This document shows positions 32,976-39,004 of a stretch of 55,692 nt of DNA, one piece after another; positions within the stretch are counted from its first letter, which is position 1, and each line of letters starts with the position of its first letter. Under the pieces are notes generated by a model. That model was not told the DNA's origin, ran no database searches, and saw only the letters and a list, made by a program, of their open reading frames with translations. The stretch is from a virus. Taxonomy: Duplodnaviria > Caudoviricetes. Both the position numbers and the translations under genes were made by a program. Location: positions 1 to 55,692 of IMG/VR virus record IMGVR_UViG_3300029787_000058; one strand, 5' to 3'.

Positions 32976-33191
32976 TCAAATAGATTTTTTCTTTTCGTAT
33001 TCTCTCTCCCAACATAGAGCAAGGTGTTTCACTTCTCTATTATCTAGCATCAGGGATAACCCATTTGCTTTAATGTATACCGATCCACCTGAATGATGTG
33101 CCGGTATTTTTCTATCCTTTAAATAGACTACTGCTTTTACAGGATGATGGTTTACTTTCCTTTCGGTATGTGTACTTGTGAACTTTTTCAT
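32976..33191 (-). CDS. Hypothetical protein
   Basis: 71-aa ORF in tightly packed early operon. Confidence 0.55.
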   Translation of the reverse strand: MKKFTSTHTERKVNHHPVKAVVYLKDRKIPAHHSGGSVYIKANGLSLMLDNREVKHLALCWEREYEKKKSI

Positions 33192-33193
33192 GC

Positions 33194-33346
33194 CTAATCA
33201 AGTTTATCGTCTAATATGTAGTTAAACTTATTATAGCATTCCTTAGAACAAAACAAGGTGTTTGTTTCCTCTTCACATTCTAAGCAGTAACCGCTAGTGT
33301 CTTCTGTCCAAGGATTTCCTTGGTCTAATCCTTCGTCGTGGTTCAT
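33194..33346 (-). CDS. Small zinc-finger protein (50 aa, not in track)
   Basis: ...YCLECEEETNTLFCSKECY... gives CxxC-x8-CxxxC. Confidence 0.6.
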   Translation of the reverse strand: MNHDEGLDQGNPWTEDTSGYCLECEEETNTLFCSKECYNKFNYILDDKLD

Positions 33347-33348
33347 AA

Positions 33349-33930
33349 TTAATTTCTTACTATTCCCCAAACGATTGCTTGGAATTCATACCCTCGTACA
33401 CCTACCATCTCTGCACATTTTAGTGTTAATTGTTCTAACTGCTTGTACCTGAGTGGTGTCAATCCTGATTCAATAGTCTTGCCGAAGCAGGCTCTTAGAT
33501 GCCATACATCTATGGTCACTTTGCTAGCATCTAGTTCAGCAATGTTTTTTACAAAAGAATAGGTCTTGGGTGATGCCTGATCGATCCCTCTCTCACCTTT
33601 AGCAATCTCAAATGCTTTGTTCTTATTGCTATGGAATGTAGATACCTTGACATCTTCGGGATTCTTACCCTCATTAACCGCTTTTAGAACTGTTCTAGTG
33701 TCAATGATATTTCTCTCCCATTTGTTTCTAGGACTTAGTGCGCTGATTACTTGTGCAACAACAGCGGGATCATAGTCTAATTGCTTTCCCATGTCTATAC
33801 AGATTTGGTTAGCATTCTTGTACCATTGCATACCTTCTTGTGTATGTTGGTCTGTACGTTTTTCGTACATCTCTAGAAGATTCTTTTTTATCTTCCTCTT
33901 GTGATAAGGTGATAGTGATTTGATTTTCAT
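33349..33930 (-). CDS. HhH-glycosylase-like phage protein
   Basis: G..WY, ALSP...W..N, KT.SF..N, VTIDVWH.R, QA..W motifs. Confidence 0.55.
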   Translation of the reverse strand: MKIKSLSPYHKRKIKKNLLEMYEKRTDQHTQEGMQWYKNANQICIDMGKQLDYDPAVVAQVISALSPRNKWERNIIDTRTVLKAVNEGKNPEDVKVSTFHSNKNKAFEIAKGERGIDQASPKTYSFVKNIAELDASKVTIDVWHLRACFGKTIESGLTPLRYKQLEQLTLKCAEMVGVRGYEFQAIVWGIVRN

Positions 33931-33975
33931 AATTAAGGATTTGGTTTTGGTTTCTCGTACGTATATAATATAGGG

Positions 33976-34179
33976 CTAACTTGTCAGTTCATGCAATTCT
34001 GAAGGATTAGTAGTGCCATATCTCTTCTCGTATGTTTTTAACATAGCCATTATTGTATCGTATAGGGCTGAGTCTTCAGGAAGGGACATCCCCTCGTTAC
34101 TTCTCTTTTTCAGAGCAAATAGTTCTTTGTTTAGAACAATCAATGTTTGAATTTCATTTAAATTTTTAGATAAAATCAT
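33976..34179 (-). CDS. Hypothetical early protein
   Basis: 67-aa ORF in operon. Confidence 0.5.
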   Translation of the reverse strand: MILSKNLNEIQTLIVLNKELFALKKRSNEGMSLPEDSALYDTIMAMLKTYEKRYGTTNPSELHELTS

Positions 34180-34286
34180 GATATTATAAGTTTAATTATT
34201 GTATAAATTACTGCAAAGTAAGCAAGAAACATAACAACAATTCCTAAAATACCTACAGCGATCGTCATTCTCGGTCTCAATCTCAT
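34176..34286 (-). CDS. Single-TM micropeptide (36 aa, not in track)
   Basis: MRLRPRMTIAVGILGIVVMFLAYFAVIYTIIKLIIS*; ATGA overlap at both ends. Confidence 0.5.
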   Translation of the reverse strand: MRLRPRMTIAVGILGIVVMFLAYFAVIYTIIKLIIS

Positions 34287-34453
34287 GCATTCATGGCTTT
34301 AACATATTCGTCATACTCTGCAAGAAATTTTTCTTTGTACTTAGGATCAGTCATTGCTAGTGCTAATTCTCTGATCCAATCTTCATCATGCATAAGGCAA
34401 TTATTTCGGTCAACTTCATACATATAGGTTAGCATCTCTTCGATATCCTTCAT
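34283..34453 (-). CDS. Hypothetical early protein (56 aa, not in track)
   Basis: MKDIEEMLTYMYEVDRNN...; ATGA coupled. Confidence 0.55.
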   Translation of the reverse strand: MKDIEEMLTYMYEVDRNNCLMHDEDWIRELALAMTDPKYKEKFLAEYDEYVKAMNA

Positions 34454-34689
34454 AACCCTAAGTGATATTTAAGTGTTCCTATTGCCATCTCATCCTGATA
34501 CATTTCTCTCGCTTGATCTTCAATAGATCTCAGCGTGTACGGCTCAACATCCTCTACTCTATCTAGTAGTTCATTAAAGTAGTCTTGGGCCTCTTCGGTA
34601 TAAGAGCCGTTTAAACGTGCTTTACCTTGGAAGTGTTGATCGACATACTTGCCAACCGCCTCTATGATTTCAATTTGTCTGTCTGTCAT
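34450..34689 (-). CDS. Hypothetical early protein
   Basis: ATGA-coupled ORF. Confidence 0.6.
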   Translation of the reverse strand: MTDRQIEIIEAVGKYVDQHFQGKARLNGSYTEEAQDYFNELLDRVEDVEPYTLRSIEDQAREMYQDEMAIGTLKYHLGL

Positions 34690-34919
34690 GATTTAAAACT
34701 TTTGTTGTATTCATAGTCATCAATTAGACTTTCCAATTGATTTTTATCCTCTAACTCGTATAGATTTAACTGCTTTGCTTCTAGACATCTTCCGATGTAT
34801 GTGCTAGTGCCATTGCCATCATTCCAAATTGTTACGTTAGGAATGTTTGTTTTGCATTCGTATCCGACTCCTCTTCGAGTATCGAAATACCTTACTGAAA
34901 TTACTTTTAAGTCCTTCAT
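34686..34919 (-). CDS. Hypothetical early protein
   Basis: VRYFDTRRGVGYECKT..IWNDGNG; ATGA coupled. Confidence 0.65.
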   Translation of the reverse strand: MKDLKVISVRYFDTRRGVGYECKTNIPNVTIWNDGNGTSTYIGRCLEAKQLNLYELEDKNQLESLIDDYEYNKSFKS

Positions 34920-35224
34920 AAGTTCTGCGCTTTAATAAATTTAACTACGCTATCGTATGCATCAATATTATCGTGGTTTAAGATTGCTAAATCAATAGCC
35001 CCCATTAAACTCCTCCATTCGTTTGATTCCGGATATCGCCTTCTCGACTTTCGACATTTCCATATCACCGGCATAATCCAATCCCATGAAGTATCCCACA
35101 TTGGGTCTTCTGTTACATAATCATCCACTTCTGTGGAGTAACATACTCTGCCATCATCATAGAATTCGCATTCCATGAACTTAGCAATTAACATATCGGT
35201 TTTATCTAAACTAACTGAATTCAT
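34916..35224 (-). CDS. Hypothetical early protein
   Basis: LIAKFM...SWDWIMPV..K...VVKFI pattern. Confidence 0.65.
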   Translation of the reverse strand: MNSVSLDKTDMLIAKFMECEFYDDGRVCYSTEVDDYVTEDPMWDTSWDWIMPVIWKCRKSRRRYPESNEWRSLMGAIDLAILNHDNIDAYDSVVKFIKAQNL

Positions 35225-35227
35225 AAT

Positions 35228-35494
35228 CTATTTAACTTTAAAATTGAATGTTCGCACTTTGCGGAACGTGTTATCAGGATTAATACTCGTCAACTTGACT
35301 ACCTGTAATCCGGCACAGGTCATTCTCTTCTCTGCAATCTCTTCTCCACCAAAACAGCGGAAGAATTCTTGCGTATCTAGATTAGTAATTTTATCGAAAG
35401 TATCCCAATCAATGGTACTTACTTTTCTTTTCTCGGACATCTCGCCAATGGTTTGGCTTGTCTCGATCATCTCAATATCAAAATTTTGTTTCAT
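35228..35494 (-). CDS. Hypothetical early protein
   Basis: 88-aa ORF with early leader CCAAATCCAAACC-ATG. Confidence 0.65.
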   Translation of the reverse strand: MKQNFDIEMIETSQTIGEMSEKRKVSTIDWDTFDKITNLDTQEFFRCFGGEEIAEKRMTCAGLQVVKLTSINPDNTFRKVRTFNFKVK

Positions 35495-35570
35495 GGTTTG
35501 GATTTGGTTTTTGGTTCATGTACGTATATAAATTAGCAAACATTTTTTTGCATTCCAACAATTATTTTTT
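35495..35570 (-). promoter_or_regulatory. Repeated early promoter/leader (also 33931-33975 and 37670-37745)
   Basis: Minus strand TA..TT.TATACGTAC...AACC..AAATCC...ATG in three places; two copies have an upstream TTGGAA...GCAAAAAA. Confidence 0.65.
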
Positions 35571-35593
35571 TTCCCATAGGGAACTTTTTAAGG

Positions 35594-35779
35594 TTAACCT
35601 AGGTCGAACGTATAATGTAAGTCTTCAGCCATTCCGCTAACTTTTTCCAGTAAATAAATGGCATCTTCCGCAGGCCGGATAAGTTCTTCCCGAATATTTA
35701 AATCGGCTAGTGTTATTTTTTCGTCTTCTAATTTTTCAAGTAGTTCGACTAAGGTTGCAAGATCAGATGTAGTATTCAT
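35594..35779 (-). CDS. Acidic early protein, tandem paralog A
   Basis: LVELLEKLEDEKITLADL.I...I.P...AI.LL.KV shared with 35883-36062. Confidence 0.7.
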   Translation of the reverse strand: MNTTSDLATLVELLEKLEDEKITLADLNIREELIRPAEDAIYLLEKVSGMAEDLHYTFDLG

Positions 35780-35799
35780 AATTAATTTATTTAAGGTTT

Positions 35800-35847
35800 C
35801 CGTTTCATCCTTTTGGAATCGTCAGCCAAGGTTGCACCTTGATACGG
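35800..35847 (-). ncRNA. Type III hammerhead ribozyme
   Basis: CCGU-A^-UCAAGGU GCA ACCUUGG-CUGACGA-U UCC AAAA GGA U-GAAACGG. Confidence 0.85.
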
Positions 35848-35882
35848 TAGCAGTTTAATATCATGCTCAGGATAAGAAATAC

Positions 35883-36062
35883 TTATTTAAGGTTAACTTT
35901 TTGAAGTAAAGTGATGGCCTCTTGTACAGGGTCAATAATGTCATGCTGAATATCTAAATCGGCTATTGTTATTTCACCATCATCTAATTTTTCAAGTAGA
36001 TCAACTAAGTTGTCAAGATCTGTTATTCCTAATTCTAAATTTCCAAAATCAATAGTATTCAT
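35883..36062 (-). CDS. Acidic early protein, tandem paralog B
   Basis: Probable start MNTIDF at 36062; the track's start at 36101 lies inside the ribozyme. Confidence 0.7.
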   Translation of the reverse strand: MNTIDFGNLELGITDLDNLVDLLEKLDDGEITIADLDIQHDIIDPVQEAITLLQKVNLK

Positions 36063-36080
36063 AATAAATTTATTTAAGAT

Positions 36081-36132
36081 TTCCGTTTCATGCTTTTGCA
36101 ATCATCAGTTAAGGTTACACCTTAATACGGAA
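36081..36132 (-). ncRNA. Type III hammerhead ribozyme
   Basis: UUCCGU-A^-UUAAGGU GUA ACCUUAA-CUGAUGA-U UGC AAAA GCA U-GAAACGGAA; compensatory changes relative to the 35800 copy. Confidence 0.88.
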
Positions 36133-36163
36133 GCAGTTTTACATCTTGCTTAGGATAGATGGT

Positions 36164-36469
36164 CTATGACCAGACTCTCATTCCGCTTTGCTTGAACCAT
36201 TCATCATCCGTTAGGATGTCTTCGGGGTCTTTTAGTTGTTCCCACATTGACTTTAAATCGGAAACATCCTTTTGATTCTGCGTAAAGTTGTCGACAAAGT
36301 CAGATCGGTAACCATACCAAGACTCTGCAACGTGAATTTGAGAACATTCTGAATAAACACTAACATATGGTTCTTTTAGACTGCACCACCATCCGTTATC
36401 TTCTTCATCCCATAAGTCTTCGACTAGAGGATGATTTTCTATCAATTGAATTAATTTTGCTTTTCTCAT
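36164..36469 (-). CDS. Hypothetical early protein
   Basis: 101-aa acidic, Trp-rich ORF. Confidence 0.6.
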   Translation of the reverse strand: MRKAKLIQLIENHPLVEDLWDEEDNGWWCSLKEPYVSVYSECSQIHVAESWYGYRSDFVDNFTQNQKDVSDLKSMWEQLKDPEDILTDDEWFKQSGMRVWS

Positions 36470-36480
36470 GATTTAATAAA

Positions 36481-36927
36481 TTAAAGGTTAATTGAACTTA
36501 AAGGTTTCATCTCTTCTTGATAATCAAATGCTATAAAGGCTTTTATAGTTGAATCCTCTACACAGCGATAACCAAGATATATCAGATGCAAAGCCATATG
36601 GTTATAATAATTTTCAATTATTTTGTCCTCTAGGTCTTCGGACAAATTGTCTGTCTCTAAAAGAGATTTAGCCAATGAAAGTACATCACCATTATAGATT
36701 GGTAAATCAATAATACTTGGTAAGCCACTTAGCCATTCGGCTAGATTCTTTTGAATTGGAAGGTGGCAGTTATTCTTATGAATAAATTCCTTTAGGAATG
36801 TCGTGAACAAAAACTCCATCTTTTCAGATGGTGTATCTGTCTTCACTTGGTACTCTGTACCATCGATCTTGTCTAGTAAATAAGTATAGATATTATTCCT
36901 ATACTGCGAAGAATTTGTCTTTAACAT
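36481..36927 (-). CDS. Hypothetical early protein
   Basis: EWLSGLPS.I.LP.YN pattern. Confidence 0.65.
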   Translation of the reverse strand: MLKTNSSQYRNNIYTYLLDKIDGTEYQVKTDTPSEKMEFLFTTFLKEFIHKNNCHLPIQKNLAEWLSGLPSIIDLPIYNGDVLSLAKSLLETDNLSEDLEDKIIENYYNHMALHLIYLGYRCVEDSTIKAFIAFDYQEEMKPLSSINL

Positions 36928-36947
36928 GGTTATGGATTTTTAAGTTT

Positions 36948-37001
36948 AACCTGACCTCCTAAAGGAGGTTTCGTCCCATCTCAGGGTACTCATCAGAGGT
37001 T
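36948..37001 (-). ncRNA. Type I hammerhead ribozyme
   Basis: AACCU-CUGAUGA-GUACCC UGAGAU GGGAC-GAAA-CCUCC UUUA GGAGG-UC^-AGGUU; canonical core and GUC triplet. Confidence 0.92.
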
Positions 37002-37316
37002 TTATGAATTGCTTATCCTAATTTTTATCGGCAAATTATAGAGATCTTTATATTCAGAATCATTGAGTATATAGTCAAGTAATATTTGTCTGTGTCTATG
37101 AGATAATGAAGCATAGAATCTCATAAATCCTAGAGTATTATCATCTGATTCATCACAGAACTGATTGAACTTTTTTAGGAAGTGATCGGTATTAAAGCAT
37201 ATTCCAGTTGATCCAACATTTCCGTATCTTGGGAAGGCTTTCTCTATGAAATCATACTCATAGTTAAAAGCATACATTAAGACTAGATTATAGTTATCGA
37301 AGGTTTTCTTTGTCAT
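37002..37316 (-). CDS. Hypothetical early protein
   Basis: 104-aa ORF ending at the ribozyme. Confidence 0.6.
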   Translation of the reverse strand: MTKKTFDNYNLVLMYAFNYEYDFIEKAFPRYGNVGSTGICFNTDHFLKKFNQFCDESDDNTLGFMRFYASLSHRHRQILLDYILNDSEYKDLYNLPIKIRISNS

Positions 37317-37342
37317 GATATTTAATTTTACAGGTTATTAAT

Positions 37343-37669
37343 TTACTTGAGATTATTTTTTAGAAACCTTTTCAAGGTTCTAGAGATTAGAGTGAGATCA
37401 TATTTTAACTCGTCAAGTTCAGAGAACTTATTTACGTTATATCTTTTTCTGAATGAAAAATTGTCCATACCTCCTTCGGAGTCTATGTAAACAAATTGGT
37501 TATTCGTTCGAATAAGGTTTACTTCTAAGTAAGAGGGCCAAGTTGATCCTCCGTAGGAGCAAGGAATTTCACTAAAGGAGTCTTCGTGTTCTTTATATAC
37601 TCTTACTAATTCTTTAGCAGTGTTAACTCTCTTGAGTAATGTAGTAGATATGGTTCTTTTGTTTTTCAT
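37343..37669 (-). CDS. Hypothetical early protein (first of early operon)
   Basis: 108-aa ORF downstream of early promoter at about 37700-37745. Confidence 0.6.
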   Translation of the reverse strand: MKNKRTISTTLLKRVNTAKELVRVYKEHEDSFSEIPCSYGGSTWPSYLEVNLIRTNNQFVYIDSEGGMDNFSFRKRYNVNKFSELDELKYDLTLISRTLKRFLKNNLK

Positions 37670-37955
37670 GGTTTGGATTTTGTGGTTCGTCTTTCGTACG
37701 TATACAATTTAGCACCGCTTTTTTGCCATTTCCAAAAAAAATTTGCAAATAATTTTCTTACGTAGTAAAAAAGTTTTTCATCCAGTTTTGGGGCAGTCTT
37801 GAGCCTCGTACGTAATCAATATCACTTTGAAGAATGATCAAGTCTAGACACAATCTTGATTCATGACACGTACCTCTAACTTGTTAAACAAGTCAAACAA
37901 TGTGTCCCCTCCTCTGGAGGGATAGGTGTTTTCGGTTTGGTGGGAGGTTGATTGT

Positions 37956-38021
37956 TCGCACCCTCCTCAGGACTGGTCGAATTTTTCAGGCTGTCTTCGA
38001 CAGGTGGTGTCGCACCCTCCT
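37956..38021. repeat. 12-bp direct repeat TCGCACCCTCCT in GC-rich non-coding island
   Basis: Copies at 37956-37967 and 38010-38021. Confidence 0.8.
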
Positions 38022-38160
38022 ACGTGGATACCCACTGCCTTCGCGGGGAAACGCCTAAACCTTGCGCGCGTTTCGGCAGGAAAGGCACCCCCCATCGAAC
38101 TGGTTTGGGTTTCGGATCTCTCGGCTGACCGCGTGTATATATATATAATCCCCCCGCTGC

Positions 38161-38385
38161 TTATTTCTGAGAAATTTTGTGGACTTCTCTGAGTTGTTTA
38201 AGTTCTTCTTTTTTTTCTTTGTACTTCTTTTTAAGTGTTGAGTACTTCCGCTGTAAAATCAATATTTGGGAATATTGCTTTTTAAGCCATGGGGACATAC
38301 TAACGACACCGAGCGCAAAAAATAAAGAACACACTGTGATCATAATAAGGAACTCAGGGTTTTCGTTTATTTGCTCCAGGGTCAT
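38161..38385 (-). CDS. TM + basic coiled-coil protein
   Basis: N-terminal hydrophobic helix and Lys-rich tail. Confidence 0.55.
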   Translation of the reverse strand: MTLEQINENPEFLIMITVCSLFFALGVVSMSPWLKKQYSQILILQRKYSTLKKKYKEKKEELKQLREVHKISQK

Positions 38386-38615
38386 TTGTCCTGGTGTAGT
38401 AAAAGTGATTTACCTAGGGTGGGGTTTATCTTGGATATTGCCCGATAGATTATCCGGCTTCTTTTCTTTACTTCTGCCTTTTCTGTTTTGGTGCTGTCTT
38501 GTCCAAGGTTCTGATATTGTACAGCGTCCATGTACAGAAGTTTGTCTACTCTATACTTATCTGACTGGTGTATACAGTTCACGGTTTTCTCTATAAGTTG
38601 TTCATTAAATTTCAT
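38382..38615 (-). CDS. Hypothetical protein
   Basis: D.LL..DA..Y.NLG.DST..E...VK..SR.IY.AI pattern. Confidence 0.65.
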   Translation of the reverse strand: MKFNEQLIEKTVNCIHQSDKYRVDKLLYMDAVQYQNLGQDSTKTEKAEVKKRSRIIYRAISKINPTLGKSLLLHQDK

Positions 38616-38848
38616 AAGTCCTCTGTCAATTAATTACACTAAAAAAAATTATGCAAAGTAATGGCCCTTGCACACTGAGTTTCGTCTTTTGATTGTCGAG
38701 ATGTTCGTCGTTGAACGACATAATCTATAATATGCCTTTGGCTTATAGATGTAGTCTCTGTTCGTATTGTCTACACAAAGACGTGTCTGAAGGTACAACA
38801 AAAAAAGTTAAGATGCAACACTTGTTACAACATACAATACCAACTCTT

Positions 38849-39004
38849 CTAGAACGGTAACTTGCTGTCTCTGTTGAGATAGATTCCTAAAACAACACAT
38901 ATGATACCTAACAGCGACTTCATGTCGTGACACATAAAGAGCATCCCGCCAAAAATCATAAGTGCTTCGGGAAGTATTTTTTTAATTTCATCTAGTATAC
39001 TCAT
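38849..39004 (-). CDS. Small two-TM protein (51 aa, not in track)
   Basis: MSILDEIKKILPEALMIFGGMLFMCHDMKSLLGIICVVLGIYLNRDSKLPF*. Confidence 0.5.
   Translation of the reverse strand: MSILDEIKKILPEALMIFGGMLFMCHDMKSLLGIICVVLGIYLNRDSKLPF

Follow-up and report, generated by a model that had tools for sequence, protein, structure and literature searches.

The ribonuclease RNase III cuts the early polycistronic messenger RNA (mRNA) of phage T7 between genes, and the upstream product keeps a stabilising structure at its 3' end. Polycistronic transcripts can also be punctuated by transfer RNAs (tRNAs), for which mitochondria provide the model, and small open reading frames (ORFs) of T4-type phages are surrounded by PeSL cassettes, composite intergenic motifs made of a stem-loop and a promoter. 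A further arrangement is found in prophages, in which multiple hammerhead ribozymes often flank single genes or short blocks; excerpts of the report describing them state that polycistronic constructs of about 2 kb were cleaved at all sites in vitro, give processing into gene-length mRNAs as the likely role, and record a natural U10.1-U11.1 mismatch that retains activity (Perreault et al. 2011, PMC3088659). The purpose of phage arrays of hammerhead and twister ribozymes has been open since that year, and a 2019 review, as excerpted, still called the roles of bacterial ribozymes "largely elusive". Here we analyse the IMG/VR virus record IMGVR_UViG_3300029787_000058, whose entire stretch of 55,692 nucleotides (nt) we call the window. 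Its minus strand carries two hammerhead motifs in tandem, each preceded by a compact pseudoknot and followed by a small acidic ORF.

Read 5' to 3', the module at this locus consists of the stop codon of the gene ahead, a gap of 6-8 nt, the 27-nt pseudoknot, a type III hammerhead predicted to cut 5 nt further on, an A/U-rich leader of 22 nt and the ATG of the next gene. Unlike in the RNase III processing of T7, the RNA itself would do the cutting, the ends would be a 5'-hydroxyl and a cyclic phosphate, and the 3' structure is separate from the cutter. The prophage clusters of Perreault et al. likewise have hammerheads on one strand around single genes or short gene blocks, including the U10.1-U11.1 variant. 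Clustered phage hammerheads and the U.U mismatch have thus been in print since 2011, and the hammerhead part of the finding is not new in kind. The differences are that all members here are of type III, that they come from uncultured aquatic phages, and that a fixed structure ends 5-6 nt before the cut, a design that the excerpts of that paper do not contain. RiboJ-type synthetic insulators (PMC6206723) also use a hammerhead in the 5' untranslated region (UTR) that removes the upstream context and stays at the 5' end of the message, in front of the ribosome-binding region; by comparison, the phage arrangement is natural, stands between cistrons and is paired with an upstream 3' structure, and the phage leaders show no Shine-Dalgarno-like motif. 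The new and testable part is this fixed pairing with a 3' structure, especially with a 27-nt pseudoknot that is common to sites preceding tRNAs.

The two hammerheads and their family

The duplicated unit of about 283 base pairs (bp) described in a first-pass annotation of this DNA is indeed present: two units lie at a spacing of 283 nt, each with a hammerhead and then an acidic paralogous ORF. A repeat finder aligned a block of 105 nt (35770-35874 versus 36053-36157) with 87% identity at that spacing; the 127-nt coding block is 76% identical between the copies, and the mean column identity of the two aligned units is 82%. Hammerhead A occupies positions 36079..36136 and hammerhead B positions 35796..35853, both intergenic, on the minus strand and among small ORFs that all point the same way. 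Copy A (36136-36079) reads CCGUA, UUAAGG-loop-CCUUAA, CUGAUGA, U-UGC-AAAA-GCA-U and GAAACGG; copy B (35853-35796) reads CCGUA, UCAAGG-loop-CCUUGG, CUGACGA, U-UCC-AAAA-GGA-U and GAAACGG. Both have the type III topology, with stems I and II capped and stem III open. The compensatory changes that the annotation had noticed are confirmed, since from copy B to copy A a C-G pair of stem I becomes U-A, a U.G pair of the same stem becomes U-A, and a C-G pair of stem II becomes G-C. So are the GUA triplet and the U.U at the base of stem II, which both copies show when the minus strand is read. Counting reproduces the predicted cuts at 36126/36125 and 35843/35842, and shows that each is followed, 63 nt further on, by an ATG, at 36062 and 35779 respectively. 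The core pattern occurs at exactly these 2 sites of the 55,692-base record, a reversed control pattern at none, and folding of the single sequence alone recovered the three stems of copy A. Compared with the Rfam family RF00008, the copies share the three-way junction open at stem III, the CUGANGA and GAAA core segments, the A15.1-U16.1 pair and a GUH triplet; they differ by U.U in place of G-C at 10.1/11.1, a stem II of 3 Watson-Crick pairs with an NAAA loop, and a stem I that is a hairpin of 6-7 bp.

Relatives of these motifs are numerous in IMG/VR. The window-type stem II pattern retrieved 18 loci, all of which, except one that is truncated, have a complete hammerhead with differing stem I sequences, and a looser pattern (CCGUA, core, GAAACGG) retrieved at least 119 stretches. 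Among the 130 loose-pattern matches listed, the window's two included, 87 form a stem I of at least 6 bp together with a stem II of at least 3 bp, the others having 0-2 bp; the number expected to pass both by chance was estimated at well below one. An alignment of 72 distinct sequences (MAFFT, alignment A2) has 89.7% of its cells paired, compared with 69.7% in shuffles, and the CUGANGA and GAAA core of both copies is invariant in 72/72 aligned relatives, although the fetching pattern fixed these columns. A covariance model (CM; R1) found 157 matches in 82 of the fetched IMG/VR loci. In the alignment of the 131 distinct matches, which was fitted to the CM, 91.3% of cells are paired, versus 68.5% in shuffles and at most 48.4% when the partners are slid, and double changes occur in 15 of 17 pairs, stem III included. 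Pairing reaches 99.9% in stem I, 87.7% in stem II and 83.7% in stem III, and none of 500 shuffles attained the observed score. The A15.1-U16.1 pair is kept in all 131, and the cleavage triplets are GUA (91), GUC (34), GUU (5) and AUA (1), H17 being A in the window copies. Positions 10.1/11.1 are G-C in 66, G.U in 2 and otherwise composed in 63 (mostly U.U); the window copies lack the canonical G10.1-C11.1, and there are near-identical ribozymes that differ only at this pair, G-C in one and U.U in the other (L111 vs L105, L110 vs L108). U10.1-U11.1 does not exclude membership of the hammerhead class, because the excerpts of Perreault et al. (2011) document it as a natural variant that retains activity.

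The assignment of the window copies does not depend on their own presence in the model. Copy A scored 68.2 bits and copy B 62.5 bits with the full CM; with a model built without the window and the loci L010 and L022 (R2) they still reached 65.1 and 59.4 bits. No other site of the window came up at E<=1, and the next-best score was 8.5 bits. One relative, L001, aligns end to end with the Rfam model Hammerhead_3 and with identical stem assignment, at 34.2 bits and E 2e-6 in a 91-nt search, the gathering threshold of RF00008 being 48.5 bits. Core sequence, topology and family-wide covariation together bear out the type III identity that had been proposed. These comparisons establish, at the level of sequence, two intact hammerhead motifs under purifying and compensatory selection in the spacers of co-directional genes.

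The family has a fixed genomic placement. An ORF starting with ATG follows within 200 nt of the hammerhead in 130 of 131 distinct contexts, the ATG lying 62-72 nt past the cut in 103 of the 130, and an upstream ORF ends within 150 nt of the cut in 122 of 131. By our own descriptor, 39 loci besides the window have 2-5 copies on the same strand. The window's spacing of 283 nt is the shortest; seven others have 301, 301, 309, 314, 334, 335 and 335 nt, and the rest 547-3966 nt. Some family members are solitary and stand in a 5' UTR. The 36 nt upstream of the hammerhead hold a stable structure (<= -8 kcal/mol) in 101 of 128 contexts, and in 94 of these 101 it ends 5-6 nt before the cut.

Some members deserve mention in their own right. 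The densest array that we saw is on the minus strand of L002, with five CM matches in about 2.1 kb (546-606, 1013-1071, 1499-1558, 2058-2116 and 2544-2601) spaced by about 470-560 nt. The cultured Flavobacterium phage vB_FspP_elemoE_10-3D has one family member (L130; MT497078.1, 28911-28971, minus strand, 48.8 bits), with a canonical G-C at 10.1/11.1, which is absent from the annotation of the record; it sits in a divergent region ahead of the first gene of the leftward block. Among genome contigs, the stem II-type pattern had 4 matches, two of them without stem I and two that appear to be genuine hammerheads. The latter, L133 and L135, are window-type U.U hammerheads with an upstream hairpin, on contigs binned with metagenome-assembled genomes of Patescibacteria and Saccharibacteria; they may be phage contigs or prophages.

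Structures upstream of the predicted cut

The first-pass annotation had also reported a conserved hairpin, AGCA...UGCU, upstream of each hammerhead. The two complementary segments are present in both copies, but they do not form a stable hairpin (-2.7 and -3.6 kcal/mol, no better than shuffles); covariation makes them instead helix 2 of an H-type pseudoknot. Pseudoknot A, 27 nt at 36131..36157 on the minus strand, has helix 1 UAUC/GAUG, helix 2 AAGCA/UGCUU and the loops CU, A and UAAAAC. Pseudoknot B, at 35848..35874 on the same strand and 8 nt past the stop of ORF A, has helix 1 UAUC/GAUA and helix 2 AGCA/UGCU with an outer G.A mismatch. The gaps from stop to pseudoknot in the window are 6 and 8 nt, and the cut lies 5 nt beyond the pseudoknot.

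The evidence for this fold comes from a set of sequences much wider than the hammerhead family. Exact copies of the 25-nt element turned up in 102 stretches of IMG/VR, most of which lack a hammerhead. Positions 7 and 27 covary (G-C 54, A-U 22 of 85), and a fuzzy search showed positions 1-4 and 13-16 changing jointly. A descriptor that left helix 1 free gave 185 matches, of which 175 have helix 1 paired at 4/4, compared with about 5% by chance, in 19 variants and with up to 5 copies per locus; none of the 38 multi-copy loci has copies on both strands. Pairs were counted in 64 distinct sequences, one 28-nt variant having been dropped and the rows pre-filtered for helix-1 pairing: pair 1-16 is AU 24, UA 17, CG 12, UG 9, GC 1 and GU 1; pair 2-15 is AU 37, GC 9, UA 8, CG 7 and UG 3; pair 3-14 is UA 46 and AU 18; and pair 10-24, in helix 2, is CG 48, UG 14 and UA 1. 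Judged from these alignments, the element is a compact H-type pseudoknot that combines a covarying helix 1 with an invariant helix 2 and invariant loops (CU, W, UWAAAC). An earlier impression that each genome has one copy (5/5 records, with one match at <=3 mismatches) was wrong, as helix-1 variants differ at up to 8 positions. The pseudoknot occurs in 105 loci on contigs of 2-160 kb (L137-L235, e.g., L168:5428-5452, L160, L165, L174, L179 and L213), most copies being without a hammerhead.

The surroundings of the element are constrained too. In 74 of 123 cases the gap between the upstream stop and the pseudoknot measures 5-8 nt, most often 5 (40 cases). Among 140 distinct contexts, a tRNA starts 2-10 nt after the pseudoknot in 25 (mode 4-5), and a hammerhead with its cut 5-6 nt past the pseudoknot follows in 9. 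These spacings imply that a hammerhead or an RNase P cut would both leave a tail of about 5 nt. tRNA punctuation is a close functional parallel, in which the RNase P cut would coincide with the position of the hammerhead cut; the differences are the phage context and the apparent use of a tRNA or a ribozyme as interchangeable cutters behind one conserved structure.

No family of Rfam 15 covers the pseudoknot: scans of both copies at E<=10 gave only unrelated weak hits, and the window has none at gathering level. A blastn search of a 41-nt consensus stretch against GenBank phages yielded only marginal, partial matches, and a literature text search with 11-mers of the motif had nothing relevant among the matches listed. 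Two other roles were considered for the element and rejected. A general promoter is ruled out by the helix covariation and by the tRNAs that start 2-10 nt after it. A stimulator of readthrough or frameshifting, suggested by the spacing of 5-8 nt from the stop, is at odds with the new stop that is met after 13 codons when the stop before copy A is read through, and with the tRNAs and ribozymes that follow. Words like TTATCCACA repeat 40-70 nt past several pseudoknots (L143, L160, L162, L168, L193, L213 and L229); they seem to resemble DnaA boxes and may mark an origin or a regulated promoter.

A second structure occupies a similar place in other members of the family. A hairpin GUGUC-loop-GACAC precedes the hammerhead in 72 of 128 contexts, and the group of the window is without it. 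Over both strands this hairpin has 397 distinct contexts, with a hammerhead next in only 70, and by sequence it is a general intergenic element, whose conservation suggests a specific binding partner. Its palindromic form GUGUC-UUCAAA-GACAC is found in many intergenic spacers of the loci L001-L126 (e.g., on the plus strand of L001 at 258, 1173, 3226, 3795 and 5018).

A proposed model of mRNA punctuation and its alternatives

The explanation that we consider probable is that the module joins a 3'-end structure to a cutter and thereby splits polycistronic phage mRNA into stable single-gene messages. The polycistronic transcript would cut itself at both hammerheads during transcription. The upstream piece would end in the pseudoknot and a 5-nt tail, CCGUA>p, where >p is the 2',3'-cyclic phosphate, and would be a poor substrate for 3' exonucleases. 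The downstream piece would start with a 5'-hydroxyl and the folded body of the hammerhead, followed by the unstructured leader and the start codon. The outcome would be separate and stable single-gene mRNAs: RNA alone would do what otherwise takes a terminator and a promoter, or cutting by RNase III. Cleavage in vivo, protection of the ends and an effect on expression are what we infer from the conserved layout. The release of a unit-length RNA, which had been foreseen in the first-pass annotation, follows conditionally: if both sites are cut, hammerhead chemistry would give a 283-nt RNA with the ORF of 59 amino acids (aa), a 5'-hydroxyl and a 2',3'-cyclic phosphate. This predicted RNA (35843..36125, minus strand) would comprise the body of hammerhead A, the 22-nt leader, ORF A, pseudoknot B and CCGUA>p. 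The leader of the window, 22 nt, matches the gap after ribozyme-less pseudoknots, most often 20-37 nt, which suggests that the constant 63 nt between cut and ATG reflect a standard leader and not a special coupling of ribozyme and start codon.

A number of observations weigh against this explanation, some of them touching the hammerheads and others the upstream structure. The Rfam hammerhead models, which the first-pass annotation had named as a check, do not match the window copies even at E<=10 in 91-nt searches. The whole window has no Rfam hit at gathering level and no hammerhead_3 match at E<=10, the only hammerhead signal on the copies at that cutoff being a spurious 10.6-bit fragment of Hammerhead_1, and the relatives also stay below the Rfam gathering score, with 0 gathering-level hits in 16 loci. 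The IMG/VR training loci were fetched with the window's own core patterns, which makes core identity partly a matter of design, so that only the stems count as independent evidence. The copies do not fold significantly better than shuffles (z -0.43 to -1.75), and the minimum-energy fold of copy B in its 91-nt context is a competing structure. G10.1 is lost to the U.U, and stem II is limited to 3 Watson-Crick pairs; with the weak folding statistics, this means that the ribozymes of the window could be slow or conditional. As for the upstream structure, an ATG-ORF comes within 100 nt after 71 of the 140 pseudoknots, with neither hammerhead nor tRNA (in the remaining 35 contexts something else comes next). 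Like most of the 397 hairpins, these pseudoknots have no such cutter after them, so the structures must serve some purpose without one close by. Protection of the ends is proposed from enzymology, in which 3' exonucleases need a single-stranded tail longer than about 5 nt.

More tentatively, and with a good deal of doubt, we suggest that the 27-nt pseudoknot belongs to a previously undescribed class of phage RNA that sets mRNA 3' ends, with interchangeable cutters about 5 nt further on. The cutters may be a hammerhead, a tRNA cut by RNase P, or some further activity where neither stands. Conservation of this kind, with helix 2 and the loops fixed while helix 1 covaries, is that of catalytic cores or of specific protein sites, so the pseudoknot, very small as it is, could itself self-cleave or recruit a nuclease.

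Other explanations differ in whether the hammerheads act at all and in what their action achieves. The lack of Rfam hits and the weak single-sequence folding statistics would be expected if the copies were chance matches to a loose hammerhead consensus in a duplicated intergenic region, devoid of RNA function. This is barely credible given the fixed genomic placement, the formation of both stems in 87 of the 130 pattern matches listed and the leave-out scores of the two copies set against the next-best 8.5 bits, and the family-wide covariation already contradicts it. It is less far-fetched, albeit still unlikely, that the hammerheads are negative or conditional switches, in which the 5'-hydroxyl marks the downstream message for decay or cleavage uncouples it from the translation upstream, tuning down the acidic proteins at a rate that the weak U.U core would make dependent on conditions. 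The U.U variant and the short AU-rich stems suggest sub-maximal activity, the near-identical pairs that are G-C or U.U at 10.1/11.1 (L111/L105, L110/L108) look like rate tuning, and Perreault et al. (2011, PMC3088659) consider that cleavage of slow phage variants may be regulated. Such switches would however hardly account for the constant design: a structure that looks protective lies 5-6 nt ahead of the cut, and the folded ribozyme would stay with the 5' end of the downstream piece. The copies precede different, mostly small genes in 130/131 contexts, which fits general processing better than gene-specific repression, and we saw no ligand-binding extension.

Two further explanations were considered. 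The module may work mainly as a recombination seam for the swap, duplication or loss of small genes, with catalysis incidental or decayed. PeSL cassettes, the subject of PMC2839356 and PMC4122927, offer the precedent: they, too, are a conserved composite intergenic motif that brackets small ORFs and coincides with insertions, deletions and replacements between close relatives, whereas they act at the level of DNA and transcription and the second half of the module here is a ribozyme that would act after transcription. The tandem duplication of module and gene in the window fits such a seam, as does the recurrence of the module between small ORFs that are unrelated, with as many as 5 copies in a locus. 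Related loci add to this. In L010, whose identity to the window is 89-97%, a lone cassette with a B-like ORF takes the place of the window's two; in L014 an unrelated ORF follows a module that matches copy A at 96% identity over 111 nt. As the coding DNA of A and B is only 76% identical, the duplication predates the split of window and L010. A pure seam nevertheless needs identity and not covariation, and stems I, II and III covary around an invariant core, which makes it distinctly unlikely that recombination is the main role. The role of seam is compatible with mRNA punctuation and no alternative to it: module and gene would have been duplicated, giving the paralogs A and B, and the conserved module would additionally serve as a seam between related phages. 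The first-pass annotation had raised another outcome, namely that the excised unit is circularised into a circular mRNA for the 59-aa protein, the re-formed hammerhead holding the ends while the ribozyme or an RtcB-type ligase joins them. The centroid fold of the unit keeps stems I and II, and stem III closes the 5'-proximal ACGG with the 3'-terminal CCGU and juxtaposes the ends, so that ligation is chemically conceivable; the CCGUA 5' strand is common to both copies, and spacings of about 300-335 nt recur in the 7 other loci. In viroid-like circles and retrozymes (the subject of PMC7761336) and in ribozyme pairs of RNA viruses, a unit a few hundred nt long is likewise bounded by two hammerheads and has ends that can be ligated, and tandem pairs are reported to surround segments of 186-399 nt in eukaryotic RNA viruses (PMC13725137). 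The window, by contrast, belongs to a DNA phage and its unit codes for a protein and is not rod-like: its minimum free energy is -37.8 kcal/mol, and shuffled sequences average -42.6 (z = +1.05). The range of spacings (283-3966 nt, most of them 0.5-4 kb), the solitary members and the single cassette of L010 do not fit, and Perreault et al. (2011, PMC3088659) report having looked for circular and spliced RNAs from phage hammerhead clusters and detected none. Towards its 3' end the unit moreover has a pseudoknot that elsewhere precedes tRNAs, a better fit to a linear 3' end. Circularisation was thus not borne out, and we regard it as very improbable.

The phage, its neighbouring genes and the possible meaning of the arrays

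The 55,692-base IMG/VR record represents a whole virus, about 98% complete by estimate, and encodes a large terminase, a portal, virion proteins and a primase/helicase. The terminase is 40-48% identical to those of Flavobacterium, Cellulophaga and Maribacter podophages and of an uncultured spring-water phage. The record covers nearly the whole genome of an uncultured podophage of the Flavobacteriia-phage type. Positions 33000-39000 had zero matches to GenBank phages by DNA similarity.

The duplicated genes encode small acidic proteins. ORF A (35883..36062, minus strand; 59 aa, isoelectric point [pI] 4.05) and its paralog ORF B (35594..35779, minus strand; 61 aa, pI 4.13), a near-orphan, are 55% identical over 44 aa, and AlphaFold2 predicts both as two-helix hairpins (mean pLDDT 81.8 for B). 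Neither matched a Pfam family; PHROGs gave nothing for B and one weak match for A, to a family of unknown function (E 0.0027). Homolog searches with the two ORFs gave 4 close homologs, 1 viral locus and 10 proteins at E<=1e-3, 6 of these being long multi-stretch proteins. The gene ahead of the first module (36164..36469, minus strand) encodes 101 aa with a pI of 4.38; its stop codon lies 6 nt ahead of pseudoknot A, and it matched no family.

A scan for promoters and terminators found promoter-like sites at chance level in 34800-37200 (10 found, 10.2 expected). A GC-rich hairpin of 5 bp, UUCCC-loop-GGGAA, lies at 35571-35583, 10 nt past the stop of ORF B; on the minus strand it has A-runs on either side, and a terminator-like score is reached only for the plus strand, along which there are no genes. 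Further along, 37900-38150 is an ORF-free island between two minus-strand ORFs, with up to 62% GC compared with about 35% around it, and it is also kept in the relative L010. Rfam gave zero matches for the island at E<=1, and shuffled versions of it fold about as well (z = -0.65); it may represent a DNA site or a non-coding RNA that is as yet uncharacterised.

Our analysis describes a large hammerhead family that is invisible to standard Rfam annotation, together with a well-supported RNA motif that has no Rfam family. About 130 relatives share a fixed design, in which a structure ends 5-6 nt before the cut and the body of the ribozyme would remain at the new 5' end, 21-31 nt before the start codon. 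This turns a vague idea of "processing" into a precise model, in which protection of the 3' end would be paired with cutting. If it is true, the pseudoknot punctuation class would give phage hammerhead arrays their first concrete and testable function, and these phages would have a self-contained system of RNA punctuation.

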